A DNA stretch of 64,000 bases from an uncultured Rhodospirillales bacterium (lineage in GTDB: Bacteria; Pseudomonadota; Alphaproteobacteria; Acetobacterales; Acetobacteraceae). Below the pieces are notes generated by a model that did not search any database, was not told the DNA's origin, and saw only the letters and a program-made list of their open reading frames with translations. This document shows, piece by piece, positions 4,982 to 24,729 of this stretch. Positions within the stretch are counted from its first letter, which is position 1; every line of letters begins with the position of its first letter. The stretch is from positions 16,275 to 80,274 of the forward strand of contig CAIYMY010000029.1 of assembly GCA_903927465.1 (NCBI GenBank), read 5' to 3'. The position numbers and the translations under genes were made by a program.

Positions 4982-4994
4982 AGCGTATTCTCCT

Positions 4995-6593
4995 TTAGCC
5001 GCGCATGGCTTGTAGCTGCGCGGCATAGCCGGCGGGGTTCACCGTTACATCAATCAGGCTTGGGCCTTGCAGCGCAAAAGCGGCTTCAAGGGCGGTGATG
5101 TATTCGGCTTCGGTCGTGGCGCGGAAGCCCGTGGCGCCAAAGCCTTCTGCGATGGCGGCGAAATCCGGCCGTGCCCAGCGCACACCCTCGGGCGGCAACT
5201 GCCGCTGCTGCTGCTTGATATCAATCAGCGACAGCGCGCCATCATTAAAGACGATGGTGATGCAGGGCGCGCCGGCCTCCGCCGCCGTTGCGAGTTCTGC
5301 CACGCACATCATCAACCCGCCATCGCCGGTAAAAGCAATGGCGCCATCAGCAGGGTTTTCCAGTGCGGCAGCAAGCGCGGCTGGGAGCGCAAAGCCCATC
5401 GAGGCGAGGCCGTTGGAAATCAACACATCGCGCGGCGCCGCGCATTCCCAGAAAGCGGTGGCCGAGAACATATGCGCCCCCGCATCAACGCTGATGCGTG
5501 GGGTGCGCCCAGCGCGGCGCGCGGCTTCCTGCGCCAAACTCACAATAAGCGGCGGTGCGACACCGCCTGAGCCCTGCCAAGTCAAAGCCGCGCGCATGGT
5601 ATCCCGATGTGTCGCAATCACCGCGCCATCCCACGCACTGCGTTTGGCGCTGTGCGCCAGCGCGGTAAAGCACGGCGCCAACGCGCCATGCAGTGATGCG
5701 GTGGGCGTGACGTAATGCACGTGATGTGCGCGCAAGCCGATATCCAGGACTGGCGCCGTATAGCGCCAAGGTTGCAGGATGAGTTCCACCGGATCGAGGC
5801 CCGCCAGGATGATCAAATCCGCATCCTGCACGCAGGGTGCTTCCAAAGATCCGCCGGTGAAAATGCCGACGAAATGCGGATCAGCATCCGCGATCACGCC
5901 CTTGGCTTTATAGGTTACCAGCGCCGGGCAGCCGAGCGCCGCCACCAAAGCGCGCAGTGGTTCGGCTGCCGTTACGGCTTCCACACCCGCCAGGATCACG
6001 GGCTTGCGCGCCGCAGCCAATACTGCACGCGCTTTAGCCAAGGCTGCGTTATCAAGTGGCGTGGGTATGCTTGCCGGCAAAGGCGGTAATTCGCCCGCCG
6101 GGCGGCGCGCAGCTTCGCTGGTTAAATCCAGATGCACCGGGCCGATCGGCGCTTGCATGGCAAGGTCAAGCAGGGCTTCGATCTCGGCCGCCGGGTTTTC
6201 GCTGCGCGCTTGGGAATAACCCTTCACCAATTCGGCGCTCACGTTCCGCTGATCAAACACCTGATGGGTGATGTAGCTGATTTGCTTTTCGGTGAAGCCA
6301 TCGGTCAGCAGCAACACCGGCGCGCGTTCCAACGCGGCACAAGCAATCCCATTCAGCGCATTCATCAACCCCGGGCCCTTGGTGGTCAGCACCACACCGG
6401 GTGCGCCGGTCACTTCCGCATCCGCCACCGCCATCATCGCCGCATTGCCTTCATGACGCGCCAGGATGAAGCGAATGCCAAAACGCTCGGCTGCTGCGAT
6501 GATATCCAGCGAAGAACCACCCCCCGGCACGCCATAGATGCGCCTGGTGCCGCGCCGCGCGAGCGCTGCCAGCAAATACTCAGCGGTGTTCAT
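4995..6593 (-). CDS. Thiamine diphosphate-dependent enzyme (acetolactate synthase-like superfamily)
   Basis: YGVPGG, RHE catalytic Glu, GPGLMN, SNGLASMGFALPAA, and the GDG...ND ThDP/Mg motif; ATG 6593 overlaps the upstream stop (ATGA). Confidence 0.9.
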   Translation of the reverse strand: MNTAEYLLAALARRGTRRIYGVPGGGSSLDIIAAAERFGIRFILARHEGNAAMMAVADAEVTGAPGVVLTTKGPGLMNALNGIACAALERAPVLLLTDGFTEKQISYITHQVFDQRNVSAELVKGYSQARSENPAAEIEALLDLAMQAPIGPVHLDLTSEAARRPAGELPPLPASIPTPLDNAALAKARAVLAAARKPVILAGVEAVTAAEPLRALVAALGCPALVTYKAKGVIADADPHFVGIFTGGSLEAPCVQDADLIILAGLDPVELILQPWRYTAPVLDIGLRAHHVHYVTPTASLHGALAPCFTALAHSAKRSAWDGAVIATHRDTMRAALTWQGSGGVAPPLIVSLAQEAARRAGRTPRISVDAGAHMFSATAFWECAAPRDVLISNGLASMGFALPAALAAALENPADGAIAFTGDGGLMMCVAELATAAEAGAPCITIVFNDGALSLIDIKQQQRQLPPEGVRWARPDFAAIAEGFGATGFRATTEAEYITALEAAFALQGPSLIDVTVNPAGYAAQLQAMRG

Positions 6594-8278
6594 GCGCGTG
6601 CCCGATCCGGCCAGAAGCGCACACCGGCCCGCGCGAGCCCGCCGCCAAGGCCAATCGCCGTACCATCCGCGCGCCAGCACGCCGCCCCTTCCATGCTGCC
6701 ATCGGCCTGGAAGGTGATGGCATTCATGCCGCCGCCAACATGCGGCATGGGCGCAACCTGATGCCCGCGAGCCTTGAGCGCTTCAAGCACCGCGGCATCA
6801 AAGTCGGGTTCAACTTCCACCGCAGCGCCTTGAGTCCAAAGCCGCGGCGCTTCCACCGCTTCCTGCAGCGACATGCCGTGATCCACCAGATTGAGCAAAC
6901 CCTGCATGACCGAACCGAAAATCCGCAAACCGCCCGGCATGCCAAGCGCATAAGCGGGCTTGCCATCCTTCAGCGCAATCAGCGGCGCCTGGGATGTGGT
7001 GATGCGCTTGCCGGGCGCGACAGACAAAGCCTTGCCGGGGCGCGGATCGAACAGCGCCATATAGTTGTTCGGGATCAGCCCCGTGCCCGGCACCAGGAAG
7101 CGCGCGCCAAACAGTGAATTGATGGTCTGCGTTGAGCAAACAATATTGCCCTGATCATCCGCCACCGTGACATGGGTGGTATTGGCGCTCTCGCCGGGGC
7201 TGACCCCCGGCCCCCAGGTTTGCGCGCGCGCCATATCAACTGCGGCGCGGCGTTCATCGCCATAGGCGCGCGAAATCAGCCGCGCCACGGGTACATCCAC
7301 AAAGGTAGGATCAGCAGTGGCGGCGGCACGATCAGCGAAGGCAATCTTCAACGCCTCGGCCAGCAGATGCAGCGTATCGGCGCTGCCGAAACCCATCCCG
7401 TGCAGATCGAAGCCTTCCAATATGTTCAGCATTTGCAGCACATGCACGCCGGAAGACGCCGGGGGCGGTGGCAGCAAAACCTCATAACCACGATAGGGGC
7501 CACGCAAAGGCGCGCGTTCAATCGTCGTGAAATCTGCAATATCGGCGGCGGAGACAATGCCGCCCGCCTTCCTGATGCCATCAGCAATCGCGCTGCCCAA
7601 GGCGCCCTTCAGCACGCCAGGCCCTTCGCGCGCGATCAGCGCGAGGGTTTCAGCATATTCCGCCTGGATCAGCCGCGCACCTGGCTTGATCGGCGCGCCA
7701 CCTGGCAATAATAGCGCGGCAATGGCGGGGTCGCGCGCCAGATCATGCGCTGCTTCATTGATGCATTCGGCCAGATAGGGCGTGACGCCAAAACCGCGCG
7801 CCGCGTGGCGTATCGCCGGCGCCATCACATCAGAAAGCGGCATGCTGCCGAAGCGTTCCAGCGTTTCGCACCAGGCGCGCAAATTGCCCGGCACGGCGAC
7901 AGAAAGCGGGCCGACGATATTGGCGCGGCCCGTCGCTTCAAAATTCATCGCATTGGCGGGCGCAGCGGGCGTGAACATATCGGCGCGCGCCGCAGCCGGC
8001 GCGGTGGACAGCCCATCAATCACGGTGTGCCGCCCATCTGGCAAGCGCAGATGCGCCATGCCGCCACCCAGAATGCCCACCATCATGGGTTCCACCACGG
8101 TCAGCGTGAACAGCGCGGCGATGGCGCCATCCACCGCATTGCCACCGGCAGCGAGCATTTCCGCCCCAGCGGCGGAGGCGAGCGGATGGTTCGTCACCAC
8201 CATGCCGCGCGTGCCCGTGGCGGGGCGTTTTTCCGTGGTAAAATGCGTGCCAGCGCGCGACCGCCAATTATCTTGCAT
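6590..8278 (-). CDS. Gamma-glutamyltransferase-fold Ntn-hydrolase (cytoplasmic, atypical substrate pocket)
   Basis: GGNAVDGAIA, N-TTH autocleavage site and PGG oxyanion motif; no signal peptide; alternative start at 8293. Confidence 0.88.
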   Translation of the reverse strand: MQDNWRSRAGTHFTTEKRPATGTRGMVVTNHPLASAAGAEMLAAGGNAVDGAIAALFTLTVVEPMMVGILGGGMAHLRLPDGRHTVIDGLSTAPAAARADMFTPAAPANAMNFEATGRANIVGPLSVAVPGNLRAWCETLERFGSMPLSDVMAPAIRHAARGFGVTPYLAECINEAAHDLARDPAIAALLLPGGAPIKPGARLIQAEYAETLALIAREGPGVLKGALGSAIADGIRKAGGIVSAADIADFTTIERAPLRGPYRGYEVLLPPPPASSGVHVLQMLNILEGFDLHGMGFGSADTLHLLAEALKIAFADRAAATADPTFVDVPVARLISRAYGDERRAAVDMARAQTWGPGVSPGESANTTHVTVADDQGNIVCSTQTINSLFGARFLVPGTGLIPNNYMALFDPRPGKALSVAPGKRITTSQAPLIALKDGKPAYALGMPGGLRIFGSVMQGLLNLVDHGMSLQEAVEAPRLWTQGAAVEVEPDFDAAVLEALKARGHQVAPMPHVGGGMNAITFQADGSMEGAACWRADGTAIGLGGGLARAGVRFWPDRARA

Positions 8279-8289
8279 AGGTATTTCCT

Positions 8290-9498
8290 TCATTGCCGAA
8301 CACGCATCATGAAAAGTGCCGCAACTGCCGCAACGCCAAGCAGCGCGGTCAGCCATAGTGAAGCCGCGCCAAAATCATCCAGTAGCAGCCCAAACAACAA
8401 GGGCGCAAAAGCCTGCGAAGCCCGCGCCGGCGCGGTGATGAAGCCCTGGCGCTGCCCATAGCCAACCGGCCCGAATAGCGCGAGCGGCAACGTGCCGCGC
8501 GTGATGGTCAGCAACCCATTCCCCGCGCCATGGATAATCACAAAAAGCGCGGCAAAGGGCGCGCCCAGCGCCATCAGTACCACCACCGCCACCGGATGCG
8601 CACCAGCGGCAATGCGTGCGGAAAAAAGCGGATTCATCTTGCGCATGAGTGTAAATTCAACAACGCGCGCCGCCACCTGCGCCGGGCCCATCAACGCGCC
8701 AGCTGCAATCGCGACGGCGAGGGATGTGCCTGCGGATTGCAGTAGCCCCGGCAAATGCGCGGCAAGCGCGGTAGAACTAAAACTCGCGGTCGCCAGCACG
8801 AAAGCGAGCAGGATCATGTCGCGTTTGCAGTCCCGCGTTTCCTCGGCAGATAGCGGTGGCGCGGCTTCCTTGGGTGGTGGTGGGGGTGCCTTCGGGATCA
8901 GAATAAGATTGAGCGGCAGGCAGATGAAGAGATGCAAGGCCACCCAGCCGAGGCAGGCGCCGCGCCAGCCCCATTCGGCTTCCATCAGCGCGGAAAGCGG
9001 CCAGCCGACCGTGCTCGCAAAACCCGCAATCAGCGTAATGCCGGTGATGCTGTTGCGCGCATCCTTGCCGTAAAGCCCGGCAAGCGTCGCGAAGGCCGCA
9101 TCATAAAGCCCCATCGCCATGGCAATGCCAATGATGAACCAGCTTAGGATCAGCATCGGCAGACCATTGGCAAAGGCCATGATCAGCAGGCCAAGAATGA
9201 AAATCATGTTCGAAATGGCCAGCACATCGCGCCCACCGCGCTGGTCAATCGCGCGGCCCGCCGCTGGCCCCAGCAGCGCGGTCAGCAGCAGGGAGCCGGA
9301 AAACACGCCAAAGACCAGGGCGCGCGACAGGCCCAGATCCTCGGCGATTGGTGCAGCCAGGATAGCCGGCAGATAATAGGAAGACGCCCAGGCCAGGGTC
9401 TGGGTGGTGCCAAGCACTGTCACCACCCTGGCCTTGGAAGCGGTCGCGCTCACGGAAAAAAGCCGGGTTGCGATTTCAATCCGTGATGGCGCGGCCAC
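8290..9498 (-). CDS. MFS transporter
   Basis: About 12 hydrophobic segments; GRAIDQRGGR motif A; GTG start (exact start uncertain). Confidence 0.88.
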   Translation of the reverse strand: MAAPSRIEIATRLFSVSATASKARVVTVLGTTQTLAWASSYYLPAILAAPIAEDLGLSRALVFGVFSGSLLLTALLGPAAGRAIDQRGGRDVLAISNMIFILGLLIMAFANGLPMLILSWFIIGIAMAMGLYDAAFATLAGLYGKDARNSITGITLIAGFASTVGWPLSALMEAEWGWRGACLGWVALHLFICLPLNLILIPKAPPPPPKEAAPPLSAEETRDCKRDMILLAFVLATASFSSTALAAHLPGLLQSAGTSLAVAIAAGALMGPAQVAARVVEFTLMRKMNPLFSARIAAGAHPVAVVVLMALGAPFAALFVIIHGAGNGLLTITRGTLPLALFGPVGYGQRQGFITAPARASQAFAPLLFGLLLDDFGAASLWLTALLGVAAVAALFMMRVRQ

Positions 9499-10555
9499 GC
9501 GCTGCGGCGTAGCGTTCCGCGAAGCGGCCCTTCACTTCCGGGTTGATGATGCGTGGCGGCATTTTGGCGGCGGCACAGGCAGAAAAGGCTTCCGCCGCAA
9601 TGCGTGTGATCATGGACCGACTTTCATGCGTGACCCCCGCGGTGTGCTGCGTGCAGATCACGGCCGGGTGCCACAATAGCGGGTGTTCCTTGGGCGGCGG
9701 TTCCTGTTCCCAAACATCCAAACCGGCTGAGGCCAATTGTCCCGATTCCAGCGCCACCAGCACAGCGTTTTCATCATGGATGGAACCGCGCGCGGTGGTG
9801 ACCAGAATGGCGCCCTTTTTCATGCCGGCCAGCGCCTTGGCATCAATAATGGCGCGGCTTTGTGGCGTAAGCGGGCAATGCACGCTGACGATATCGGATT
9901 GCGCCAGCAATTCGGCCAATTCCACTTTTTCCGCCCCGCGCTTGGCCACCGTTTCGGCATCCACATAAGGGTCATAAGCCAGCACGCGGCAATTGAAGGC
10001 GGCCTTCACAATGGCGGTGGTGCGTGAACCCACATTGCCAATGCCAATCACGCCAACCGTCTTGTCGAGCAGATTATTGCCCATAAATACTTCGCGGCGC
10101 TTGGCTTCCCCGGCGCGCATGGCGGCATGGGTCTGCGGCATTTTCTTGATCAACGCCAGCATCATGCCAACGGCGTGTTCCGCCACGGCTTCGGCATTAC
10201 CGCCGGCCTGGTTCACCAAAAGCACGCCGGCCTTGGTGCAGGAATCCGGGTTGATCGTGTCATATCCCGCACCCTGGGATGCGACCATCAGCAGATTGGG
10301 CAGGCGCTGCAATAGCGCATCATTCACGTGAAACGCCTTGGGCAATTCATCGCGTGAGGCACGGACATAATAGCCATCACAGGTGGCCAGTTCCGCAAGT
10401 GCTGCTTCTTCCCCATTTTCCAGGGAAAGGCGGACCACTTCCAGGGCCGGATCGGCGGTGGCGGTTTCCAGAAAGCTTGGATGCGGCACGCGTTCCAGAT
10501 AGGCGACGCGGAATGGCTTATTGACTGCGGACAAGATTATTTCCCCCTTGCTCAA
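9476..10555 (-). CDS. D-isomer-specific 2-hydroxyacid dehydrogenase (SerA-like, no ACT domain)
   Basis: GAGYD, GIGNVG Rossmann motif, YDPY, TARG, DVWEQEP and QHTAG catalytic Arg/Glu/His; TTG start. Confidence 0.9.
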   Translation of the reverse strand: MSKGEIILSAVNKPFRVAYLERVPHPSFLETATADPALEVVRLSLENGEEAALAELATCDGYYVRASRDELPKAFHVNDALLQRLPNLLMVASQGAGYDTINPDSCTKAGVLLVNQAGGNAEAVAEHAVGMMLALIKKMPQTHAAMRAGEAKRREVFMGNNLLDKTVGVIGIGNVGSRTTAIVKAAFNCRVLAYDPYVDAETVAKRGAEKVELAELLAQSDIVSVHCPLTPQSRAIIDAKALAGMKKGAILVTTARGSIHDENAVLVALESGQLASAGLDVWEQEPPPKEHPLLWHPAVICTQHTAGVTHESRSMITRIAAEAFSACAAAKMPPRIINPEVKGRFAERYAAARGRAITD

Positions 10556-10601
10556 GGCCGGGGATGCTAGACTTGGTTTTGCCGGGGCGCCAGACCGGGG
10601 C

Positions 10602-10919
10602 CTAGCGCCTAACCGTCAACAGATGAGCCACAATATCATCCAGCTCCTCCCGGCTTAGCCGGTAATCCGGCATATTCGCATGCGGTGTGCGCAAATAGGC
10701 GCGCAGCGACATGGAAGTTGTGGAAGGCAGCGCGGCAATGGCGGCGAAGCTTGGCGCGATATCCGTGGCCGGTCCCGGGCCGCCAGGCGCGATGCGGTGG
10801 CAATTGGCGCACCAGGTGGCGGCCAGGCGCTGTCCGGCAATCGGGTCCCCGGGTTCCATCTGCGCCAGCGCCACGCCGGGCAGCGCTGCCAGCACGCATG
10901 TGATCAGCCAATGGCGCAT
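10602..10919 (-). CDS. Small class I c-type cytochrome
   Basis: Signal peptide, CANCH heme motif, distal MP (HANMPDY); AGGAGG RBS. Confidence 0.85.
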   Translation of the reverse strand: MRHWLITCVLAALPGVALAQMEPGDPIAGQRLAATWCANCHRIAPGGPGPATDIAPSFAAIAALPSTTSMSLRAYLRTPHANMPDYRLSREELDDIVAHLLTVRR

Positions 10920-10955
10920 TTTGATCCTCCTGCTTCGGGGGAGCCCGGCCTTGCC

Positions 10956-11705
10956 TCAGGCGAGGTAATTGCCCCCGTTGATGTGATAAACCTGACCCGT
11001 GATCCAGGCGGCTTGATCAGACGCAAGATAGGCCATCAATCCGGCGATTTCTTCGGGCCGCCCCATCCGCCCCAGCGGGATTTGCTGGGCCATGACCGCA
11101 AGCTCCGCTTCACTATTGCCGTAGCGCGGCTGCGCGGTATCGGTCAGGCCCGGTGCGATGGCGTTCACGCGAATGCCCTTGGAAGCAAGCGACAGGGCCA
11201 TGGACCGTGTCATGCCGATAATGCCGGCCTTGGTCGCCGTGTAATGCACCCCAAGCGGTGCCCCCCGGACGGAGGAGGAAGAAAGGTTGATGATCACCCC
11301 CTTGATCCCCGCCGCCACCATGGCGCGCGCCGCCGCCTGGGCGCAAAAGGCGCTGCCCTTCAGGTTCACGGCAATCACTCGGTCCCATTCCGCTTCGGTC
11401 ATTTCCAAAAATTCAACGCGGGGGAAGATGCCGGCATTATTGACCAGCACATCAATGCGCCCGAGTGCGGCGATGGTCTGTTCCACCAGGGCGGCAGCGC
11501 CGGCGGCAGTGCCGACATCGCCCCGGATCAGCGCGGCTTTGCGGCCTGAAGCGCGAATATCGGCTGCCAGGGCTTCGGCTTGGGCCTGGTTATCCAGCCA
11601 GTTGATCGCGACATCATGGCCCGCTGCCGCCAGGGCGCGCGCGGCCGCGGCCCCGATGCCCTGCTGCGCGCCGGTTACCAGCGCCACCCGTGTTTCGTCT
11701 GCCAT
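10956..11705 (-). CDS. Classical SDR oxidoreductase (FabG-like)
   Basis: TGAQQGIG, NNAG, YTATK and VNAIAPG motifs. Confidence 0.9.
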   Translation of the reverse strand: MADETRVALVTGAQQGIGAAAARALAAAGHDVAINWLDNQAQAEALAADIRASGRKAALIRGDVGTAAGAAALVEQTIAALGRIDVLVNNAGIFPRVEFLEMTEAEWDRVIAVNLKGSAFCAQAAARAMVAAGIKGVIINLSSSSVRGAPLGVHYTATKAGIIGMTRSMALSLASKGIRVNAIAPGLTDTAQPRYGNSEAELAVMAQQIPLGRMGRPEEIAGLMAYLASDQAAWITGQVYHINGGNYLA

Positions 11706-11818
11706 GGTCCGAACCCCCTGAAATCAGCGGAAGCCTAGTGCCAAATGCGCCCCCTGTCTTGAGGGCTTGCCCCGGCGCCCGCCCGGTGGCACCCCTTGTC
11801 AGAGAGGGAGGCGGCGCA

Positions 11819-12586
11819 GTGGATATTGCTGGAATGTTCTCGTTGCAGGGGCGCGTGGCGCTGGTGACTGGTGCGTCTGGCGTTTTGGGCGCGCATTTCG
11901 CGCGGGTTCTGCATGGCGCGGGTGCCTCAGTGGCCTTGGCCGCGCGGCGCGAAGCCGCGACAGCAGCGCTGGCCAGCGAATTGGGTGCGCGCGCGGTTTC
12001 TGTGCCTTTGGATGTGACCGCGCCGGAGACCATCCCATTGGCCTTTGCCGCCGCGGAAGCCGCCTTCGGCGCGCCATGCGATATTCTGGTCAATAATGCC
12101 GGCATCGCCGTGACCAAGCCCGCTTTGCAACAAAGCGCTGAGGATTGGGATTCGGTGCTGGATGTAAATTTGCGCGGCTGTTTTCTGGTGGCGCAGGAAG
12201 CCGCCAAGCGCCTGGTGGCGGCGAAGCGCCCGGGCGTGGTGGTGAATATCGCCTCCGTCCTTGGGGAGCGCATCATTCCGGGTGTGGTCGGCTATACCGC
12301 CGCCAAGGCCGGGCTTTTGCACATGACGCGCCATTTGGCGGTGGAATGGGCGCGGCATGGCATTCGGGTGAATGCGATTGCGCCGGGCTATATCGCCACT
12401 GATATCAACCGTGATTACTTCGCCTCCGATTCCGGGCAGGCGATGATCAAACGCATCCCGCAACGCCGGCTTGGCGCTGCCGAGGACCTTACCGGGCCGC
12501 TTTTGCTGCTCGCTTCCGATGCCGGGGCGCATATGACCGGCGCGGTGGTGACAGTGGATGGCGGCCATTCGATCAACCCGCTTTAG
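11819..12586 (+). CDS. SDR oxidoreductase, LvaD-like (putative 4-oxoacyl-CoA reductase)
   Basis: TGASGVLG, NNAG and YTAAK motifs; GAGGGAGG RBS before GTG 11819 (alternative ATG 11834). The LvaD assignment comes from operon context. Confidence 0.85.
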   Translation: MDIAGMFSLQGRVALVTGASGVLGAHFARVLHGAGASVALAARREAATAALASELGARAVSVPLDVTAPETIPLAFAAAEAAFGAPCDILVNNAGIAVTKPALQQSAEDWDSVLDVNLRGCFLVAQEAAKRLVAAKRPGVVVNIASVLGERIIPGVVGYTAAKAGLLHMTRHLAVEWARHGIRVNAIAPGYIATDINRDYFASDSGQAMIKRIPQRRLGAAEDLTGPLLLLASDAGAHMTGAVVTVDGGHSINPL

Positions 12587-12597
12587 GTTTTGCCGCC

Positions 12598-13809
12598 ATG
12601 GAATTCACGCTGCCCCCCGAAATTGATGATATGCGCCGGCGCATTCGTCGCTTTGTTGATGAAAAGCTGATTCCTCTGGAATCCAACCGCGCGAATTTCG
12701 ATGAGCATGAAAACATCGCGCCCCATGTGCTGGCGGAAATGCGCAAGGCCGCAAAGGCGGAAGGGCTTTGGGCTTTGCAAATGCCAAAGCGCCTGGGTGG
12801 CCAGGAATTGCCGCGCATTGGCATGGCCGCTTGTTATGAGGAAATGAATCGCTCCATCTTCGGGCCAGTGGTGTTCAATAGCGCAGCGCCGGATGACGGC
12901 AATATGATGATCCTGGATCGCGTTTTGCCGGAAGCGATGAAGCCGCGCTGGTTGCAGCCGATTGTGAATGGCGAAGTGCAATCCGCCTTCGCCATGACCG
13001 AACCGGATGGCTGCGGTTCTGACCCGAACCTGACCTATACCAAGGCGGAACGCGTCGGCAATGATCGCTGGCGCATCACCGGGCGCAAATGGTTCATCAC
13101 CGGCGCCGGCAATGCGAAGATTTTCATTATTCTGGCGCGTACATCGGATGATCCCCGCAAGGGGCTTTCCGCCTTCCTGTTCAGCGCCGATCAGCCGGGC
13201 TGGAAGATCGTACGCCGCATTCCGATCATGGGGCCGGAAGAACATGGCGGGCATTGCGAATTGGAATTCGACGGGCTGGAAGTCCCGAATGAACACCTTT
13301 TGATGAATGAAGGCGATGGGCTGAAGCTGACGCAAATGCGCCTGGGTGTGGCGCGGTTGACGCATTGCATGCGCTGGCTGGGATTGTCTCGACGTGCTTT
13401 GGAAATTGCCATGGAACGCATCGCGCAACGCGATTCCTTCGGCATGAAGCTGATTGACCGCGAAAGCGTGCAGGGCCTGGTGGGCCAGGCGGCGATGGAA
13501 ATCGAGATTGGCCGGCTGCTGACCATGAAGGCGGCCTGGATTCTGGACCAAGGCGGCTTCGCGCGGAAGGAAGTTTCCATGGCGAAGATTGTGGTCGCGG
13601 ATGCTTTGCAAAAATCCGTGGATACGGCGCTGCAATTGCTGGGCGCGCGCGGCTATTCCAAGGATACGGTGATTGAATGGATGTACCGCTATGCTCGCCA
13701 GGCACGCCTGGTGGATGGCGCATCCGAAGTACATCGCATGGTGTTGGCCAATACATTGCGGGCGGAGGGCTCTTCCTTCTTCGCCTGGGGTCCGCCCAAG
13801 CATGGATGA
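12598..13809 (+). CDS. Acyl-CoA dehydrogenase, LvaC/ACAD10-11-like
   Basis: FAMTEP..GSDP, GRKWFITGA, RLTHCMRWLG, and VDGASEVH with Asp at the position of the usual catalytic Glu. Confidence 0.9.
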   Translation: MEFTLPPEIDDMRRRIRRFVDEKLIPLESNRANFDEHENIAPHVLAEMRKAAKAEGLWALQMPKRLGGQELPRIGMAACYEEMNRSIFGPVVFNSAAPDDGNMMILDRVLPEAMKPRWLQPIVNGEVQSAFAMTEPDGCGSDPNLTYTKAERVGNDRWRITGRKWFITGAGNAKIFIILARTSDDPRKGLSAFLFSADQPGWKIVRRIPIMGPEEHGGHCELEFDGLEVPNEHLLMNEGDGLKLTQMRLGVARLTHCMRWLGLSRRALEIAMERIAQRDSFGMKLIDRESVQGLVGQAAMEIEIGRLLTMKAAWILDQGGFARKEVSMAKIVVADALQKSVDTALQLLGARGYSKDTVIEWMYRYARQARLVDGASEVHRMVLANTLRAEGSSFFAWGPPKHG

Positions 13810-14809
13810 GGCGCGGCGCGCAAAGCTGACGGATTGGCTGCACAGGGCCACCGGCGCGGCGGATGTGAAGCTGGGCGCGATGGCGCTGCTTTCTGGCGGC
13901 GCCATTCAGCAGAATTGGGCGCTTGATGTTGTGTTGGCAGGGCGCGACGAAGCTTGGGTACTGCGCACGGATAATGCCGCGACCTTGGCGGTTTCCTTGC
14001 CTCGATCAGCGGAGTTTGCGCTGTTGAAGGCGGCGTTTGCTGCCGGCGTGACGGTCCCGGCGCCGCTTTATTTGTGTGAGGATACCGGCGTGCTTGGCCC
14101 GCCGTTTTTCATCATGCGTCGCGTGCAGGGCATTGCCGCCGGGCATCGCGTGGTGAAAAGCGAAACGCTTTGCGGCGGACGTGATGCGGCGGTGGCGGCT
14201 TTGGGGCGCGAATTGGCGCGCATTCATCGCATCACGCCGCCGCGCGTGGATTTGGCGTTCTTGGGCACGCCGCCAGATGATGCCTGCCTTGCCTTTGTGG
14301 CCGAGCAGCGCCGTGCTTTGGATCGGCAGGTGCTGCCACGCCCTGTGCTGGAATGGGGGCTGCGGCATCTGGAACGCACCGCGCCGGCGCCTTTGCCGCC
14401 CGTGTTGAACCATAATGATTTTCGCACTGGCAATCTGATGTTGGCGGATAATGGCGTGACGGCGGTGCTGGATTGGGAATTCGCCGCCTGGGGCGATCCA
14501 CATGCGGATCTCGGTTGGTTCTGCGCCAAATGCTGGCGCTTTGGCAGCGCCCATGAGGCGGGCGGTATTGGTGCGCGTGATGCCTTCTATGCTGGCTATG
14601 CTGCGGAAGCGAGCCGCGCGGTGGATGCGGCGCGCGTCATGTGGTGGGAATTGGCCGCGCATATACGCTGGGCGGTGATTGCGATTGACCAGGGAGAACG
14701 GCATCTTTCGGGCAAGGAAACCAGCCTGGAATTGGCACTCACGGGCCATATCGTGCCGGAGCTTGAATGGGAAATCCTGAATATGACGGGGGTGCCCCAT
14801 GCAGCGTGA
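13802..14809 (+). CDS. APH-family phosphotransferase, LvaA/ACAD10-kinase-like
   Basis: LSGGAIQ P-loop-like segment, HNDFRTGNLM catalytic loop and VLDWE Mg-binding motif; ATG 13802 overlaps the ACAD 3' end. Confidence 0.88.
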   Translation: MDEARRAKLTDWLHRATGAADVKLGAMALLSGGAIQQNWALDVVLAGRDEAWVLRTDNAATLAVSLPRSAEFALLKAAFAAGVTVPAPLYLCEDTGVLGPPFFIMRRVQGIAAGHRVVKSETLCGGRDAAVAALGRELARIHRITPPRVDLAFLGTPPDDACLAFVAEQRRALDRQVLPRPVLEWGLRHLERTAPAPLPPVLNHNDFRTGNLMLADNGVTAVLDWEFAAWGDPHADLGWFCAKCWRFGSAHEAGGIGARDAFYAGYAAEASRAVDAARVMWWELAAHIRWAVIAIDQGERHLSGKETSLELALTGHIVPELEWEILNMTGVPHAA

Positions 14810-15158
14810 AGCCCCGGAAGGCCCAAGCCTACTGGCCACGGCGCGTGATGCGCTGTTGCAGGAGATTTTGCCCAAGCTTTCCGGCACGGATGCCTTCACC
14901 ACGCGCATGATCGCCAATGCCATGGCGATTGCAGCGCGAGAGGCCGTACAGAATGGCTCTTGGTTGGAAGAAACACGCGCCACGATGCAGCACCTGACTG
15001 GCGCGACCGAGGCGCCGGATACTGCCTTCGCCGCCGCTATTCGCGCGGGTGCTTTTGATCCGGGTAGCGCGCATTACGCCGAAGCAGCGGCGCTGCTGCG
15101 TGAGGCAGCGCGGATGCGTTGTGCCATCAGCGCGCCGCGGGTTTTGGGAAAGGGCTGA
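14799..15158 (+). CDS. Small helical partner protein (DUF6285/LvaB-like)
   Basis: 119 aa, overlaps the phosphotransferase 3' end; P...LL..AR..L..E.LP.L N-terminus resembles small proteins found beside APH genes. Confidence 0.7.
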   Translation: MQREAPEGPSLLATARDALLQEILPKLSGTDAFTTRMIANAMAIAAREAVQNGSWLEETRATMQHLTGATEAPDTAFAAAIRAGAFDPGSAHYAEAAALLREAARMRCAISAPRVLGKG

Positions 15159-15161
15159 CGC

Positions 15162-16772
15162 ATGCAGGATGATCTGCCGAAAACTGCCGCAAATCACGTA
15201 CCGCTTTCCCCAGTCTCCTTCCTGCCGCGCGCGGCGCATGTCTGGGGCAAGCGCGTGGCCATTATTCATGGCGCGCGGCGCATCACCTATGCGCAGTTTC
15301 TGGACCGCAGCCGGCGCTTGGCTTCTGCGCTAAGTCAGGCGGGTATTGCGCCAGGCGATGTGGTCGCAGCGCTTTTGCCGAATATTCCCGAAATGCTGGA
15401 AGCGCATAACGCCGTGCCCATGGCGCATGCGGTGCTCTGCCCCATTAATACGCGATTGGATGCGCCGACAGTGCGCTTCATCATGGACCATTCCGGCGCA
15501 AAACTTCTGCTGCTGGACCGCGAATTTGCCGCGCTGGTGAATGCCGCGCTGGAAGGCGCAGAAAACCCGCCCCGCATTATCATCATCGATGATCCAGAAG
15601 GCCCAGGTGGCGCCGCAATTGAAGCGACGGCTTATGAGGATTTCATCGCTGGCGGCGATCCTGCCTTTCCAGTGATACCGCCACCGGATGAATGGGCGGC
15701 GATTTCACTTTCCTATACTTCCGGCACCACAGGTGATCCCAAGGGCGTTGTGGTGCATCATCGCGGTGCTTATCTGAATGCTTGCGGTAATGCGCTGTCT
15801 TTTGGGTTGAATGCGCAAAGCGTCTATCTGTGGACGCTACCGATGTTTCATTGCAATGGCTGGACCTATACCTGGGCGGTCACGCTGCAAGGGGGCACAC
15901 ATATCTGCCTGCGCCGTGTGGAGCCCGCGCGGAATTTTGCGCTGATTGCTGAATATGCTGTGACGCATCTTTGCGCCGCGCCGGTGGTGCTGACCATGCT
16001 GATCCATGCACCGGAAGATCAGCGGCGCAGCTTCGCGCATCGTGTAGGGATTGCCACTGGTGGCGCGGCGCCGCCTTCGCCGGTGATTGCGGCCATGGAG
16101 AATCTCGGCTTCGATGTCACGCATCTTTATGGCCTGACGGAGTGCTATGGCCCATCATTGCTTTGCGCCTGGCAGCCGGGCTTGCATGACCTGCCTTTGG
16201 CTGAAAAAGCCGCCTTCATGGCGCGGCAAGGTGTGGCTTTACCGACACTGGAAGAAGCGACGGTGATCAATACTGAAACGGGTACGACTGTGCCGGCAGA
16301 TGGCGCGACAATTGGTGAGATTGCCATTCGCGGCAATACAGTGATGAAGGGTTATTTGCGTAACCCTAAGGCCAATGCAGCGGTTTTTGTAGATGGTTGG
16401 TTCCGCACTGGCGATTTGGGTGTGCTGCACCCCGATGGCTATATCGAAGTCAAGGACCGCGCCAAGGATATTGTGATCTCCGGCGGTGAGAATATTAGCA
16501 GCCTTGAAGTCGAAGAAGCGCTCTATCGCCATCCGGATGTGATGGAAGCAGCGGTGGTGGCACACCCAGATGAAAAATGGGGCGAAGTGCCGCATGCTTT
16601 CATTACGCTGAAGCCGGGTGCTGCCGAGAACCGCGATTCCATTATCGCTTTTTGCCGTGCAAACTTGGCAGGATTTAAAATGCCGCGCCACATCAGTTTC
16701 GGTCCACTGCCGAAAACCGCAACTGGCAAAATCCAGAAATTCGAATTGCGCGCCCGGGTGCGCGGTGGCTGA
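15162..16772 (+). CDS. AMP-forming acyl-CoA synthetase, LvaE-like
   Basis: YTSGTTGDPKG, YGLTE, GWFRTGDLG, KDIVISGGENISS and PKTATGKIQK motifs. Confidence 0.93.
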   Translation: MQDDLPKTAANHVPLSPVSFLPRAAHVWGKRVAIIHGARRITYAQFLDRSRRLASALSQAGIAPGDVVAALLPNIPEMLEAHNAVPMAHAVLCPINTRLDAPTVRFIMDHSGAKLLLLDREFAALVNAALEGAENPPRIIIIDDPEGPGGAAIEATAYEDFIAGGDPAFPVIPPPDEWAAISLSYTSGTTGDPKGVVVHHRGAYLNACGNALSFGLNAQSVYLWTLPMFHCNGWTYTWAVTLQGGTHICLRRVEPARNFALIAEYAVTHLCAAPVVLTMLIHAPEDQRRSFAHRVGIATGGAAPPSPVIAAMENLGFDVTHLYGLTECYGPSLLCAWQPGLHDLPLAEKAAFMARQGVALPTLEEATVINTETGTTVPADGATIGEIAIRGNTVMKGYLRNPKANAAVFVDGWFRTGDLGVLHPDGYIEVKDRAKDIVISGGENISSLEVEEALYRHPDVMEAAVVAHPDEKWGEVPHAFITLKPGAAENRDSIIAFCRANLAGFKMPRHISFGPLPKTATGKIQKFELRARVRGG

Positions 16773-16775
16773 GGC

Positions 16776-18002
16776 ATGATGACAGAAACTCCAAAGCCCG
16801 GTGCGCTGACCGGGCTTCGCGTGATTGACCTGACCCGCGTGGTGGCCGGCCCGCTTTGCGCACAAATGCTGGGCGATCTGGGCGCCGAAATCGTCAAGCT
16901 GGAACGCCAAGGCAATGGCGATGATCTGCGCGCTCTCGGCCCGCCCTTTGTGCCGGGGAGTGATGACAGCACCTATTTCACCTCGCTCAATCGGAACAAA
17001 CGCTCACTCAGTCTGGATTTCACGCAAGCGGAAGGGGCGGCTATCCTGAAGCGCATCGTGGCAAAGGCGGATGTGCTGATTGAGAATTTCCGCACCGGCA
17101 CGCTTGCGCGCTACGGCCTGGGTTATGAGGATTTGCGCGCCATCAATCCGCGGCTGATCTATTGTTCCGTCACGGGTTTCGGGCAGGATGGGCCTTACGC
17201 GCATCGCTCAGGGTATGATTTTGTGGCGCAAGCCATGGCTGGGCTGATGGAAGTGACTGGCGAAGCCGATGGCAAGCCAGGCGGTGGCCCGCAGCGTGTT
17301 GGCGTGCCGGTTGCGGATATGTTCACAGGCTTCGCTGCAACGGTTTCAATCCTGGCCGCGCTCAGGCATCGCGATCAGACCGGTGAGGGGCAATATTGCG
17401 AGGTCTCACTCTATGAGACCATGGTTTCGCTGATGCAGGCGCCAATGACTTCCTGGTTGAATGCCGGCAAGTTGATGCAGCGCACCGGCAATGACGCAGT
17501 GGTAGCGGTGCCTTATGGCGTGTTTCAGGGCTCGGACGCGAAATTCGTCATTGGCGTTTTGAATGATCGCGAATTTATCAGGCTTGCCGCCGCGCTGGGC
17601 CATGCTGACTGGGCGGAGGATGATCGCTTCTGCCGCGCCCGCGACCGTGCCGCCAATCGCGATTTGCTGCTTGGCATGATGCATGATGTGCTGCGCCACA
17701 GGCCACGGGCGGAATGGTTGGCGGTGCTTGAAGATGCCAAGATTACCTCTGGCCCTATCAATACCGCCGCTGATGTGGAAGTCGATCCGCACACCAAGGC
17801 ACGCCGCTTGATTGTGGAAGTGCCGCATCATGCGGGTGGGCGCGTGCGTGTGCCGGCTTCGCCCTTGCGACTGGCCGCGACACCCGTGTCCTATCGCTAC
17901 GGCATCCCCGCACCTGGTGAGCATACGGATGCGGTACTGCGCGAGTTTGCCGATATGACCGAAGAAGAAATCGCCGCGGCACGCGCCGCCGGTGTTTTGT
18001 GA
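16776..18002 (+). CDS. CaiB/BaiF class III CoA-transferase
   Basis: DLTRVVAGP, NRNKRS, ENFR and GYD (catalytic Asp) motifs. Confidence 0.92.
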   Translation: MMTETPKPGALTGLRVIDLTRVVAGPLCAQMLGDLGAEIVKLERQGNGDDLRALGPPFVPGSDDSTYFTSLNRNKRSLSLDFTQAEGAAILKRIVAKADVLIENFRTGTLARYGLGYEDLRAINPRLIYCSVTGFGQDGPYAHRSGYDFVAQAMAGLMEVTGEADGKPGGGPQRVGVPVADMFTGFAATVSILAALRHRDQTGEGQYCEVSLYETMVSLMQAPMTSWLNAGKLMQRTGNDAVVAVPYGVFQGSDAKFVIGVLNDREFIRLAAALGHADWAEDDRFCRARDRAANRDLLLGMMHDVLRHRPRAEWLAVLEDAKITSGPINTAADVEVDPHTKARRLIVEVPHHAGGRVRVPASPLRLAATPVSYRYGIPAPGEHTDAVLREFADMTEEEIAAARAAGVL

Positions 18003-18014
18003 GGGGGCTACACC

Positions 18015-19154
18015 ATGGCTGGTCTTCGTTTTGATTTGCGTGATGCACCCGATGGCGCGGCAGCGCTGCGTGCGGAAGTACGTGAATTTCTCGCTGAACA
18101 CGCACAAAATTTCACGCCGGAAATCCGCGCCCGATCCTGGATGGGGTTTGACCGTGATTTCACGCGCGCTGTCGGCGCCAAGGGTTGGATTGGCATGTGC
18201 TGGCCGCGCGAATTTGGCGGCGCAGAACGCAGCTTTCTGGAACGTAATATCGTGCTGGAAGAAATGCTCGCCGCCGGCGCGCCGGTGGGCGCGCATTGGA
18301 TTGGGGATCGGCAATCCGGCCCGCTAATCCTCAGGCTCGGCACGGAAGACCAAAAGCGCCATTTCCTGCCGCGGATTGCGAGCGGCGAATACGCGTTTTG
18401 TATCGGCTTGTCTGAACCTGATTCGGGGAGTGATCTGGCATCGCTCCGCACCAAGGCAGAAAAGGTGGATGGCGGCTGGAAGCTGAATGGCCGGAAGATT
18501 TGGACCACCTTTGGGCATCTTTGCGATTGGATGATTGCGCTGGTGCGTACCTCTCCCGCACCTGAAGGTGGCGCGCGGCATATTGGGCTTTCACAAGTAC
18601 TGGTGGATTTGCACGCGCCGGGGGTTTCCATTCGCCCGATCCGTGACCTAGTGGGCGAAAAGGGTTTTAACGAAATCACCTTCGATGATGTGATGCTGCC
18701 GGAAGATGCGCTGGTGGGGCAGGAAGGCGCAGGCTGGGCGCAGGCCACCAGCGAATTGGCATTTGAGCGCAGCGGGCCGGATCGGTATTTATCTTCGCAT
18801 CCTTTGCTGGAAGCAGCGATGACAACCCTGAAGCAGGATGGCGCCGCAGCGCCTGCGCTTGGCCGGCAAGTCGCGCGGCTTTGGGCGTTGCGCAACATGT
18901 CAGTGGCGGTGGCCGGCATGTTGGAAGATGGGCAGGACCCGGTGCGCCAAGCGGCTTTGGTCAAGGATTTGGGCAATGATTTCGAACAGGCTTTGCCCAA
19001 TGTAGTGCGTGATCTGATCGCGACGGAGGACATGCCAGAGGATATGCGCCGGATGCATGCCTATCTGACGCAGATTGTACCGACCTTTTCCTTGCGTGGC
19101 GGCACACGGGAAATTATGCGCGGCATTATCGCGCGCGAATTGGGGCTGCGCTGA
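18015..19154 (+). CDS. Acyl-CoA dehydrogenase family protein (larger subunit of a tandem pair)
   Basis: LSEPDSGSDLASLRT, NGRKIWTT, FNEITFDDV and RGGTREI motifs. Confidence 0.9.
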   Translation: MAGLRFDLRDAPDGAAALRAEVREFLAEHAQNFTPEIRARSWMGFDRDFTRAVGAKGWIGMCWPREFGGAERSFLERNIVLEEMLAAGAPVGAHWIGDRQSGPLILRLGTEDQKRHFLPRIASGEYAFCIGLSEPDSGSDLASLRTKAEKVDGGWKLNGRKIWTTFGHLCDWMIALVRTSPAPEGGARHIGLSQVLVDLHAPGVSIRPIRDLVGEKGFNEITFDDVMLPEDALVGQEGAGWAQATSELAFERSGPDRYLSSHPLLEAAMTTLKQDGAAAPALGRQVARLWALRNMSVAVAGMLEDGQDPVRQAALVKDLGNDFEQALPNVVRDLIATEDMPEDMRRMHAYLTQIVPTFSLRGGTREIMRGIIARELGLR

Positions 19155-19155
19155 C

Positions 19156-20166
19156 ATGGCAAGCGAAATCGCAACGGAACTCGCCGAACAGGCAGATCGC
19201 GCGCTGACGGATGCCGCGGATGTGGCGGTGCTGCGCAGCCTGGAAGCCGGCGCCTGGCCAGCTACCACTTGGGATGCCATGGCGGCACTCGGCCTGAATG
19301 GTGCGTTGGTTTCGGAAGATGCGGGCGGTGTTGGCCTGGGCTTCAGCGATGTGGCGCCGTTATTGGAAGTGTTGGGCCGCCACGCCGCGCCGGTGCCGCT
19401 AGCAGAAAGCATTTATGGCAATGCCTTGTTGGCGGCAGCGGGTATTTCACCGCCCGAAGGCACGCTGAGTTTTGGCGCGCGCAATGGCGCCATTCCCTGG
19501 GGGCGCCATGCCGGCCATGTTGCGCTACTGGATGGAGCGCGCATCGCGCTTTACCCGGCTGCCGCGCTCGCTTGGGAAGAAGCCAGCAATATCGGCCATG
19601 AGCCGCGGGATCGGGCGCGTATCATCGGCGCACCCATCGCGGAAGCGGTTTTGCCTAATAGCTGGGGCGCGGAAGCGGGCTTGCTTTGCACCGCACTGAT
19701 GCGCTCGGCCCAGATTGCCGGCGCCATGCAGGCGGCGCTGGCGCTGGCGGTGGATCACGCCAATACGCGCAAGCAATTCGGTCGTCCTATTGGGCGGTTT
19801 CAGGCGGTGCAGCAGCAATTGGCGGTCTTTGCCGCCGAAACCTCTGCCGCTTCTGTGGCTGCCGCTGCCGCAGCACGCGCGGTAGATCGGCGTGGTTTAG
19901 CAGCAGCAGCCTTTGAGATCGGTTGCGCCAAGATCACGGTGGGCGAAGCCGCCACGCGTGGTGCTGCCATTGCGCATCAGGTTTTTGCCGCCATGGGCAT
20001 TACGGAAGAACATCAGCTGCATCACTTCACGCGCCGGCTTTGGTCCTGGCGCGAAGAAGGCGGCAGCGAAGCCTTTTGGGCCAAACGTATCGGGCAGGAA
20101 GCGCAAGCCCTGTCTGGCGCGCTCTGGCCCTTCATCACCGCACGCGAGGAGGAAATCATCCCATGA
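19156..20166 (+). CDS. Acyl-CoA dehydrogenase family protein (short, degenerate partner subunit)
   Basis: RKQFGRPIGRFQAVQ and AHQVFAAMGIT.E motifs; lacks the N-terminal TEP..GSD flavin motif; 336 aa. Confidence 0.85.
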   Translation: MASEIATELAEQADRALTDAADVAVLRSLEAGAWPATTWDAMAALGLNGALVSEDAGGVGLGFSDVAPLLEVLGRHAAPVPLAESIYGNALLAAAGISPPEGTLSFGARNGAIPWGRHAGHVALLDGARIALYPAAALAWEEASNIGHEPRDRARIIGAPIAEAVLPNSWGAEAGLLCTALMRSAQIAGAMQAALALAVDHANTRKQFGRPIGRFQAVQQQLAVFAAETSAASVAAAAAARAVDRRGLAAAAFEIGCAKITVGEAATRGAAIAHQVFAAMGITEEHQLHHFTRRLWSWREEGGSEAFWAKRIGQEAQALSGALWPFITAREEEIIP

Positions 20167-20966
20167 GCCCATTCCTGAATATCGAACGTGATGGTGGTAT
20201 TGTTACCCTCACGCTCAATCGTCCCGAAAAACGCAATGCAATTTCCACGCGCGCGGAATGTGAGGAAGTGGAAGCCGCCTGCCGCACCTTGTCGCGCGAT
20301 GATAGCGTGCGCTGCGTGATTGTGACCGGTGCCGGTTCCGCCTTTTGCGCGGGTGGAGACCTTAAGGGCATGCGCGACAAAACCGGTATTACTGGTGGTG
20401 GTACGGGCGCAGAAATCCGCGAATCCTATCGCCGTGGCATCCAGCTTATTCCGCTGGCACTTTACGAATTGGATATCCCCACCATCGCGGCGGTGAATGG
20501 TCCGGCGATTGGTGCAGGGCTTGATCTGGCCTTGATGTGCGATATTCGCGTCGCCAGCGAAAAGGCGCTTTTTGCGGAAAGCTTTGTGAAGGTTGGCATC
20601 GTACCCGGTGATGGCGGCGCCTATTTGCTGCCGAAAGTGGTTGGCATGTCCAAGGCTTTGGAATTGTCCCTGACGGGCGACACCATTGGCCCGGCTGAGG
20701 CTTTGGCCTGCGGCATGGTTTCAAAAGTGGTGGCGCCGGAAGCGCTGCTGGATGCGGCGCGCGCCATTGCGGCGAAAATCGCCGCCAACCCGCCGCAAGC
20801 GGTGCGGCTCACCAAGCGCCTGCTGCGTGAAAGCCAGCACACGCGGCTGTCCACACTGTTGGAAATGTCTGCGGCCTATCAGGCGCTGGCGCATGGCACG
20901 CGGGACCATCGTGAAGCGGTGGATGCCATGCTGGAAAAACGCGCGCCAAGTTTTGAGGGAAGGTAA
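20163..20966 (+). CDS. Enoyl-CoA hydratase/isomerase (crotonase)
   Basis: LTLNRPEKRNA, FCAGGDL, AAVNGPAIGAG and ESFVKVGIVPGDGG motifs; ATGA overlap. Confidence 0.92.
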   Translation: MSPFLNIERDGGIVTLTLNRPEKRNAISTRAECEEVEAACRTLSRDDSVRCVIVTGAGSAFCAGGDLKGMRDKTGITGGGTGAEIRESYRRGIQLIPLALYELDIPTIAAVNGPAIGAGLDLALMCDIRVASEKALFAESFVKVGIVPGDGGAYLLPKVVGMSKALELSLTGDTIGPAEALACGMVSKVVAPEALLDAARAIAAKIAANPPQAVRLTKRLLRESQHTRLSTLLEMSAAYQALAHGTRDHREAVDAMLEKRAPSFEGR

Positions 20967-23729: not shown

Positions 23730-23755
23730 GGGCAGCTTCCTTCTTCTCCCATAGC

Positions 23756-23862
23756 CTAGAGCGTTTTCAAGCCAAGTGGAATCACTTGGGCTGCCGGAAA
23801 ACGCGACCAAACAGGGGTCTGGAGCGGTTTCCATGAACGCATATGCGCGAAAACAGCGCTAG
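23756..23862. repeat. CIR/RIME/Bru-RS-type alphaproteobacterial palindromic intergenic element
   Basis: 107 bp, CTAGAGCG...CGCTAG ends; GCGTTTTC/GAAAACGC arms; CCAAGTG-gaat-CACTTGG hairpin containing GAATC; CGCATATGCG palindrome. Confidence 0.75.
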
Positions 23863-23895
23863 CGCAGCATCAAACGGCCGTGAATGCTTGGGTTC

Positions 23896-24651: not shown

Positions 24652-24729
24652 TGTTTGCTTCCTTGCTTTGCCTTCAGGGGGCAGACTTTTTTTGTGAGTC
24701 ACAGCATTTTGATTAGTCTCCGCCTATTT

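Follow-up and report, generated by a model that had tools for sequence, protein, structure and literature searches.

The lva-type gene cluster lies within a nine-gene operon

We analyzed a window of 64 kb (64,000 nucleotides, nt, of contig CAIYMY010000029.1) that carries on its plus strand five adjacent genes resembling the lva genes of Pseudomonas putida, which we call D, C, A, B and E after their predicted counterparts LvaD, LvaC, LvaA, LvaB and LvaE. An earlier note, made from the letters of the sequence, had reported an adjacent short-chain dehydrogenase/reductase (SDR), acyl-CoA dehydrogenase (ACAD), APH kinase, partner protein of ~119 amino acids (aa) and acyl-CoA synthetase from an alphaproteobacterium. 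Pfam and NCBIfam searches confirmed all five genes on the plus strand at 11819-16772, with the coordinates correct (Table 1), and the source organism is indeed an alphaproteobacterium, an uncultured Roseomonas-like member of the Acetobacteraceae that is represented by metagenomes only. The extent of 11819-16772 given in that note places the five genes properly but cuts an operon midway, as nine plus-strand genes are packed together between 11819 and 20966 with spacings of -11 to +12 nt, and the tight string ends only with gene I, downstream of which there is a 350-nt gap.

Within this string, gene D starts with GTG, and a GGGAGG sequence is located 8 nt upstream of it. The start of A overlaps the stop of C by 8 nt, the start of B overlaps the stop of A by 11 nt, and H and I share a 4-nt ATGA overlap. 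The genes downstream of the five-gene core, F-I, are attached to it with spacings of -4 to +12 nt. The composition of the window showed nothing pointing to a foreign island, an Rfam scan of the window returned no RNA family, and scans for promoter and terminator consensus sequences gave counts at or below shuffle expectation. The closest named relatives are freshwater "Roseomonas sp." metagenome-assembled genomes (MAGs), to which B is 80-90% identical and the remaining proteins are 90-99% identical, and copies identical to B were observed on metagenome contigs only.

Table 1. Genes of the operon and features of the adjoining upstream region.
Feature	Position	Strand	Description	Basis
D	11819-12586	+	LvaD-like SDR, predicted NAD(P)H-dependent 4-oxoacyl-CoA reductase	Pfam adh_short_C2
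C	12598-13809	+	LvaC/ACAD10-11-type ACAD fold, predicted FAD-dependent 4-phosphoacyl-CoA phosphate eliminase	three ACAD Pfam domains
A	13802-14809	+	LvaA-like APH-fold kinase, predicted 4-hydroxyacyl-CoA 4-kinase	Pfam APH, E 1e-36
B	14799-15158	+	LvaB-like small partner, 119 aa	Pfam DUF6285 (PF19802), E 4e-17
E	15162-16772	+	LvaE-like AMP-binding acyl-CoA synthetase	NCBIfam NF006020/PRK08162, 823 bits vs cutoff 677
F	16776-18002	+	family-III (CaiB/BaiF-type) CoA-transferase, 3 nt past E	Pfam CoA_transf_3, E 2e-126
G	18015-19154	+	two-subunit ACAD, large subunit	Pfam ACAD N and M domains, weak C domain
H	19156-20166	+	two-subunit ACAD, small subunit; 1 nt past G	Pfam ACAD N and C domains, no middle domain
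I	20163-20966	+	enoyl-CoA hydratase, last operon gene	Pfam ECH_1; PRK09245, 417 bits vs cutoff 354
FabG-like SDR	10956-11705	-	divergent from D, first gene of minus-strand block	Pfam, NCBIfam
Conserved element GGGCTTGCC...GGTGGCAC	11763-11792	+	upstream of D, in 113-nt divergent intergenic region	

The core proteins match their counterparts in Pseudomonadaceae lva operons

As references for the core proteins, we used two Pseudomonadaceae operons that serve as proxies for P. putida KT2440 PP_2791-2795, each with a divergent PrpR/sigma-54 regulator. The first, on Stutzerimonas stutzeri S116 plasmid NZ_CP078510, was found in a plasmid search using blastn with A and B; tblastn of B against plasmids gave no match, and a profile search with distant DUF6285 proteins gave no named Pseudomonas match. 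On this plasmid, a divergent prpR-like sigma-54 regulator is followed by genes for APH, DUF6285, histidine-phosphatase, ACAD, SDR, acyl-CoA synthetase, DUF485 and cation/acetate symporter proteins, which is the lvaR-lvaABCDEFG layout described for KT2440. In the second, P. putida GCA_977014055.1, a PrpR_N/sigma-54 activator is divergent from APH, DUF6285 (122 aa), ACAD and SDR genes, and there is no E at the locus. The identities between these two reference sets (A 57%, B 45%, C 81%, D 66%) are much like those published for the comparison of Pseudomonas citronellolis LA18T with KT2440 (A 59%, C 78%, D 67%; PMC6692424).

We observed that the best match of every window protein in the reference sets is its predicted counterpart, aligned over nearly the full length at identities of 39-62%, which bears out the description of this cluster in the earlier note as an lva-type enzyme set. 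D is 47% identical to its S. stutzeri counterpart and 46% identical to that of P. putida over 256 aa, C is 42% and 39% identical, respectively, over nearly its full length, and A is 45% and 48% identical over ~330 aa, with conserved blocks all along the alignment. B is 39% identical to the DUF6285 protein at the LvaB position in both references. The closest match is that of E, which aligns with the S. stutzeri synthetase at the LvaE position over 536 aa at 62% identity, and both of these proteins score above the NF006020/PRK08162 cutoff. PRK06949 is the top NCBIfam model for D and for both pseudomonad LvaD proteins, whereas the divergent SDR matches FabG models; the specificity of an SDR is not readable from its sequence, and the reductase role of D is a prediction.

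The reciprocal BLAST that the earlier note had proposed, run on the proxy operons, held for LvaA, LvaC, LvaD and LvaE, as each reference protein found the predicted window gene as its best tblastn match. For the LvaB proteins, the tblastn return of S. stutzeri LvaB was weak (E = 5e-4, 63 residues) and P. putida LvaB gave no tblastn match in the window, though blastp aligns 111-115 residues in each case.

C and A retain residues that are catalytic in ACAD11

The best PDB matches of C are human and mouse ACAD11 (2wbi and 8v3u; E = 1e-70 and 2e-68, 38% identity), and 4hr3 is also a strong match. In ACAD11, turnover of 4-phosphoacyl-CoA requires residues R626, H634 and R637, located in the HCMR helix, and the base D753, while R631 is general to ACADs (PMC12440821). 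C contains the sequences MRLGVARLTHCMRWLG and LVDGASEVH. When aligned to 8v3u and 2wbi, MRLGVARLTHCMRWLG places R/R/H/R at the positions of mouse ACAD11 R626/R631/H634/R637, and the aspartate of LVDGASEVH falls at the position of the catalytic D753; R626, H634, R637 and D753 all have counterparts in C. The motifs RLTHCMRWLG and DGASEVH, with its aspartate, that the earlier note had pointed out in this protein are therefore present as described. C and the ACADs of both the P. putida and the S. stutzeri operon share the identical sequence ARLTHCMRWLG. The second ACAD of the operon, G, has neither the HCMR motif nor the catalytic-aspartate feature of C.

The HxDxxxxN loop of A reads HNDFRTGN, with its aspartate and asparagine aligned with ACAD11 D220 and N225, and A also carries a DWE motif (LDWEF). 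Across the kinase domain as a whole, A is distantly related to ACAD11 (E = 4e-11), and its best solved match is PDB 3dxp. Given this weak likeness to ACAD10/11-type kinases (E ~1e-11), we place A, as judged from its sequence, in the LvaA subfamily that is accompanied by a DUF6285 partner. A and C are not encoded by a fused gene of the ACAD10/11 type but by two genes, with C preceding A and the stop of C overlapping the start of A in a different frame.

The DUF6285 family to which B belongs is small (392 clusters at 50% identity; E ≤0.001), and nearly all of its members are stand-alone proteins of 100-160 aa. AlphaFold2 modeled B with confidence as a fold of five helices (predicted local distance difference test score, pLDDT, 92). 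As a Foldseek search of this model against the PDB returned nothing with E <1, ACAD11 included, B, on the evidence of the model, does not duplicate any portion of ACAD11. The B gene overlaps that of the kinase by 11 nt and is invariant in position, both of which are in keeping with the LvaA-LvaB complex reported from a pull-down by Rand 2017, as cited in PMC6692424.

Linkage of the core genes is conserved across genomes

A scan of a genome collection with a 13-sequence DUF6285 alignment recovered 80 loci, mostly from Acetobacteraceae and none from Pseudomonas. The kinase gene is directly upstream of the DUF6285 gene in 70 of the 70 loci that have upstream sequence (68 by a script criterion and 2 by inspection). 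A complete D-C-A-B-E cluster was found in 41 loci, from genera that include Roseomonas, Neoroseomonas, Siccirubricoccus, Craurococcus and Roseicella, and the partial copies at contig ends agree with it. Since the same five genes occur in the same order in 41 independent genome loci, their adjacency is not due to chance. D-C-A-B is also present on a Paroceanicella (Paracoccaceae) plasmid and in Rhodobacteraceae and Moraxellaceae MAGs, and other orders were observed in Burkholderiales and Usitatibacter loci (A-B-D-C), in one Burkholderiales MAG (A-B-E-C) and in Pseudomonadaceae (A-B-(x)-C-D). The earlier note had called the gene order rearranged. It does differ from that of Pseudomonas, but D-C-A-B-E is the standard layout in Alphaproteobacteria and Acetobacteraceae and not a local rearrangement.

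These observations bear on the possibility that the core proteins have unrelated functions, with A being a kinase for antibiotics or other small molecules, C an ordinary oxidizing acyl-CoA dehydrogenase and their adjacency incidental. A does fall in the generic Pfam APH family, and its NCBIfam matches to thiamine and aminoglycoside kinases are weak, but it is 45-48% identical to operon LvaA proteins versus a match of only E = 7e-5 to APH(3'). Furthermore, C has the non-canonical aspartate and the HCMR phosphate pocket, and linkage of the five genes is maintained in dozens of genera and under several gene orders. Because both linkage and motifs are conserved, we regard this explanation as effectively refuted and assign it only a very small probability.

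Homologs of lvaABCD in Alpha-, Beta- and Gammaproteobacteria had already been stated by Rand et al. 2017, as quoted in PMC6692424. As alphaproteobacterial homologs were thus previously reported, the window set is a further member of the known pathway, an ordinary additional case that leaves the understanding of that pathway unchanged.

Among the recovered loci, four MAG contigs labeled Asaia bogorensis, Bosea thiooxidans or Microthrixaceae (L006, L015, L018 and L076) carry the cluster at 76-100% protein identity to the window (B, 44-90%), which points to mislabeling or misbinning.

The upstream region differs from that of Pseudomonas lva operons

The earlier note found no LvaR-like sigma-54 activator adjacent to the cluster, and our tblastn searches with both LvaR proteins extend this absence to the whole 64-kb window, in which neither had a match; no divergent LvaR gene accompanies the operon. 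Homologs of LvaF/LvaG (DUF485 and acetate/cation symporter proteins) and of the histidine phosphatase were likewise absent from the window. As there is no sigma-54 LvaR, regulation of this operon differs from that in Pseudomonas.

The intergenic region upstream of D contains a conserved element made up of two blocks, GGGCTTGCC at 11763-11771 and GGTGGCAC at 11785-11792, with ~13 nt between them. Both blocks are kept in the 16 Roseomonas/Neoroseomonas loci that were compared and are degenerate in loci L055 and L057. We propose GGGCTTGCC...GGTGGCAC as a candidate promoter or operator. A sigma-54 promoter at a conserved TGGCAC upstream of D, which is part of this element, was considered and rejected, as the sequence does not have the GG-N10-GC spacing; TGGCAC is followed after 3 nt by TTG in the window clade, and nothing similar was found in other genera.

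The divergent SDR gene is part of a minus-strand block (8290-11705) that also encodes a cytochrome c, a D-2-hydroxyacid-dehydrogenase-family protein and a major facilitator superfamily (MFS) transporter. This block adjoins D-C-A-B-E in Roseomonas, Neoroseomonas and Plastoroseomonas (56-98% identity) and is missing beside D-C-A-B-E in the more distant Acetobacteraceae compared. NCBIfam gave below-cutoff matches only for the block, which is possibly linked to the operon in function.

Accessory genes F-I and the activation step

F-I are located directly downstream of E in every member of the window clade. Plastoroseomonas hellenica has D-C-A-B-F-G-H-I-SDR, lacking an intervening synthetase, and in L055 and L057 F directly follows B without E. 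F-G-H-I recur beside D-C-A-B elsewhere in other arrangements (L055, L057, L046 and L051). In other genera, F or G-H-I lies 2-4 kb off, and in most of them none of these genes is found within 10 kb. In Roseococcus/Sediminicoccus loci L060, L064, L066, L072 and L077, the place of E (~10690-13000 of the 20-kb loci) is taken by another family-III CoA-transferase (31% identical to F) and an ACAD (27% identical to C). Because E is repeatedly swapped for a family-III transferase, these arrangements suggest that activation can be carried out by a CoA-transferase in place of the synthetase, and F-I would constitute an accessory beta-oxidation set that has been joined to the core in the window lineage.

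The NCBIfam model nearest to F is a succinate-glutarate CoA-transferase, far below cutoff, while G is nearest to pimC_large and H to IpdE2 and pimD_small (pimeloyl-CoA dehydrogenase subunits), all below cutoff. These nearest families give a weak hint towards dicarboxylic or bulkier substrates. In L041, L051 and L055, the Pfam assignments of the genes that separate E from F/G-I held no hint of the substrate.

Proposed pathway and its substrate

From the homology of the five proteins to Pseudomonadaceae Lva proteins, the conservation of ACAD11 catalytic residues and the conserved gene linkage, all of which are established here, we conclude that the genes probably form an lva-type module for gamma-oxo/gamma-hydroxy carboxylic acids within the nine-gene operon at 11819-20966. 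To this module we assign a five-step pathway, in which every catalytic step, the roles of B and of F-I, and the substrate are inferred from sequence. In the first step, the acid would be activated to its CoA thioester by E or by the CoA-transferase F, which is a predicted alternative that would not depend on ATP. D would then reduce the 4-oxoacyl-CoA to 4-hydroxyacyl-CoA, and A, together with its small partner B, would use ATP to phosphorylate the 4-hydroxyl. C, with its FAD, aspartate base and the Arg/His/Arg phosphate pocket of the HCMR helix, would eliminate the phosphate to yield 2-enoyl-CoA and, in part, 3-hydroxyacyl-CoA. The product would finally be processed by the hydratase I followed by ordinary beta-oxidation. 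Levulinate and 4-hydroxyvalerate are plausible substrates, because E is so close (62% identity) to the pseudomonad synthetase at the LvaE position.

Several points weigh against this assignment. Both reference operons are proxies, neither of them itself characterized, and the KT2440 sequences lie outside the comparison. As A-D are only 39-48% identical to the pseudomonad proteins, their substrate range may differ. In our alignment, A shows no evident counterpart of R86 and R176, which have been proposed to contact CoA in the ACAD11 kinase. LvaR and LvaF/G are both missing from the window and, judging by the additional genes F-I and by the conserved divergent block, the natural substrate may be broader than levulinate or different from it. 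In addition, a literature search gave no report of levulinate use and no biochemical or growth data for Roseomonas or any Acetobacteraceae.

It is a serious prospect, if one that we rate somewhat short of even, that the chemistry is the same and the natural substrate is not levulinate but longer-chain 4-hydroxy/4-oxo fatty acids, lactone-derived acids or dicarboxylic gamma-oxo acids. D-C-A-B would then clear a gamma-oxygen "roadblock" inside a dedicated beta-oxidation set made up of F, G/H, I and possibly the divergent SDR. The close spacing (-4 to +12 nt) by which four beta-oxidation-type genes are joined to the core, and the recurrence of F-G-H-I, rearranged, beside D-C-A-B in other genera, argue for such a set, although these genes are accessory and are missing near the core in most Acetobacteraceae outside the window clade. 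The families nearest to F (a dicarboxylate CoA-transferase) and to G/H (pimeloyl-CoA dehydrogenase subunits) point the same way, but all matches are far below cutoff and the likeness of F, G and H to NCBIfam families is weak. A longer-chain substrate would be consistent with the ACAD11 pocket, which takes much longer chains (PMC12440821), whereas the 62% identity of E to the LvaE-position synthetase argues for short ones, as KT2440 LvaE prefers C4-C6 acids (PMC6692424). The operon also has neither LvaR nor an acetate-permease-type LvaFG and instead has a conserved MFS gene nearby.

A more elaborate scenario, which we put forward tentatively and consider rather unlikely, is that in Roseomonas-group Acetobacteraceae D-C-A-B was recruited into a larger, differently regulated pathway for a natural gamma-oxidized acid other than levulinate. 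The enzymes of this pathway would include a two-subunit ACAD, a hydratase and a family-III CoA-transferase that could stand in for the synthetase, perhaps joined by the divergent SDR/cytochrome c/2-hydroxyacid-dehydrogenase/MFS block, and the pathway would be controlled by GGGCTTGCC...GGTGGCAC rather than by a sigma-54 activator.

The assignment of an lva-type module would extend 4-hydroxyacyl-CoA isomerization via a 4-phospho intermediate, a recently defined route in common with mammalian ACAD10/11, to abundant freshwater Acetobacteraceae. In the loci that we compared, the kinase-DUF6285 pair is the invariant unit, and the regulator, the transporter and the enzyme of activation, be it synthetase or CoA-transferase, appear interchangeable. 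It is of modest interest that the alternative layout is conserved, that LvaR and LvaFG are missing, that synthetase and CoA-transferase are interchanged, and that F-I are fused to the core. The cluster can aid annotation of genes listed as DUF6285, "phosphotransferase family" or "acyl-CoA dehydrogenase family" in genomes and metagenomes, and cultured strains that carry it, such as Roseomonas nitratireducens PWR1, Neoroseomonas soli LMG 31231, Neoroseomonas lacus CGMCC 1.3617 and Plastoroseomonas hellenica LMG 31523, could serve to test substrate range and the role of LvaB.

Relationship to known systems

The P. putida KT2440 lva operon (Rand et al. 2017, as summarized in PMC6692424, PMC12440821 and PMC11342911) resembles the window, which was compared with its proxies, in having the five enzyme types, a DUF6285-type partner right after the kinase and an ACAD with the HCMR motif and catalytic aspartate. 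The KT2440 order is A-B-C-D-E (lvaR, lvaABCDEFG), in contrast to D-C-A-B-E here, and KT2440 has a sigma-54/PrpR-type LvaR and the LvaF/LvaG transporter, both without an equivalent in the 64 kb. Unlike KT2440, the window has a CoA-transferase, a two-subunit ACAD and a hydratase in the operon and the divergent SDR-cytochrome c-dehydrogenase-MFS block alongside it.

The clusters of P. citronellolis LA18T (PMC6692424) and S. stutzeri S116 have kinase, ACAD, SDR and synthetase homologs, as does the window, and show that lva clusters vary between species in both content and order. Both have a histidine-phosphatase gene between kinase/LvaB and ACAD, an LvaR and an acetate-symporter pair, whereas the window has none of these. 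The histidine-phosphatase gene of S. stutzeri is located between the DUF6285 gene and the ACAD gene (L086, 9702-10463). S. stutzeri has a DUF6285 (LvaB-type) gene in its operon, and the LA18T paper found none in its own cluster (PMC6692424).

Among proteins of solved structure, the best match of C is the ACAD domain of mammalian ACAD10/ACAD11 (PMC12440821, PMC11342911), with 38% identity and all phosphate-pocket and catalytic residues conserved. The ACAD11 kinase domain and A are distantly related (E ~1e-11), and their catalytic aspartates align. The mammalian proteins have kinase and ACAD fused in one polypeptide with no LvaB-like partner, whereas three separate genes encode these functions in the window. 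Separate kinase and ACAD proteins are also found in Burkholderia pseudomallei (Q63VL0/Q63VL1; PMC11342911), where they carry out the two-step conversion of 4-hydroxyacyl-CoA in vitro, and PDB entries 3dxp and 4hr3 are related to them. The B. pseudomallei pair belongs to the lineage closest to ACAD10/11, and the motifs given in PMC11342911, FNC.APDTGNME and QGRLGPG, differ from those of C and the pseudomonad operon ACADs, which read NSAAPDDGNMM or NVHAPDEGNIH and QMRLGVAR or QVRLAPAR.

The P. putida and S. stutzeri operon ACADs (L088, 11453-12622; L086, 10460-11632) are only 34-37% identical to human ACAD11 and read LNVHAPDEGNIHLM and RYAQVRLAPAR. In Fig. S7 of PMC11342911, the protein shown as "Pseudomonas LvaC" (UniProt Q88K54), said there to be 56-62% identical to ACAD10/11, reads FNCSAPDTGNMET and EIAQGRLGPG. 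These differences suggest that bacterial ACADs of the HCMR type fall into two lineages, and the Q88K54 protein used in PMC11342911 may be encoded outside the lva operon.

Neighboring genes

Beyond the operon, a minus-strand pair at 22770-24702 consists of an HMG-CoA-lyase-family gene (NF004283, above cutoff) beside a gene for a Crp/Fnr-family regulator, which is the transcription factor closest to the operon. On its other side, minus-strand genes at 1305-8356 encode hydantoinase/oxoprolinase A and B subunits, an acetolactate-synthase-family thiamine-diphosphate enzyme and a gamma-glutamyltranspeptidase, and look like a separate catabolic cluster for nitrogen compounds.

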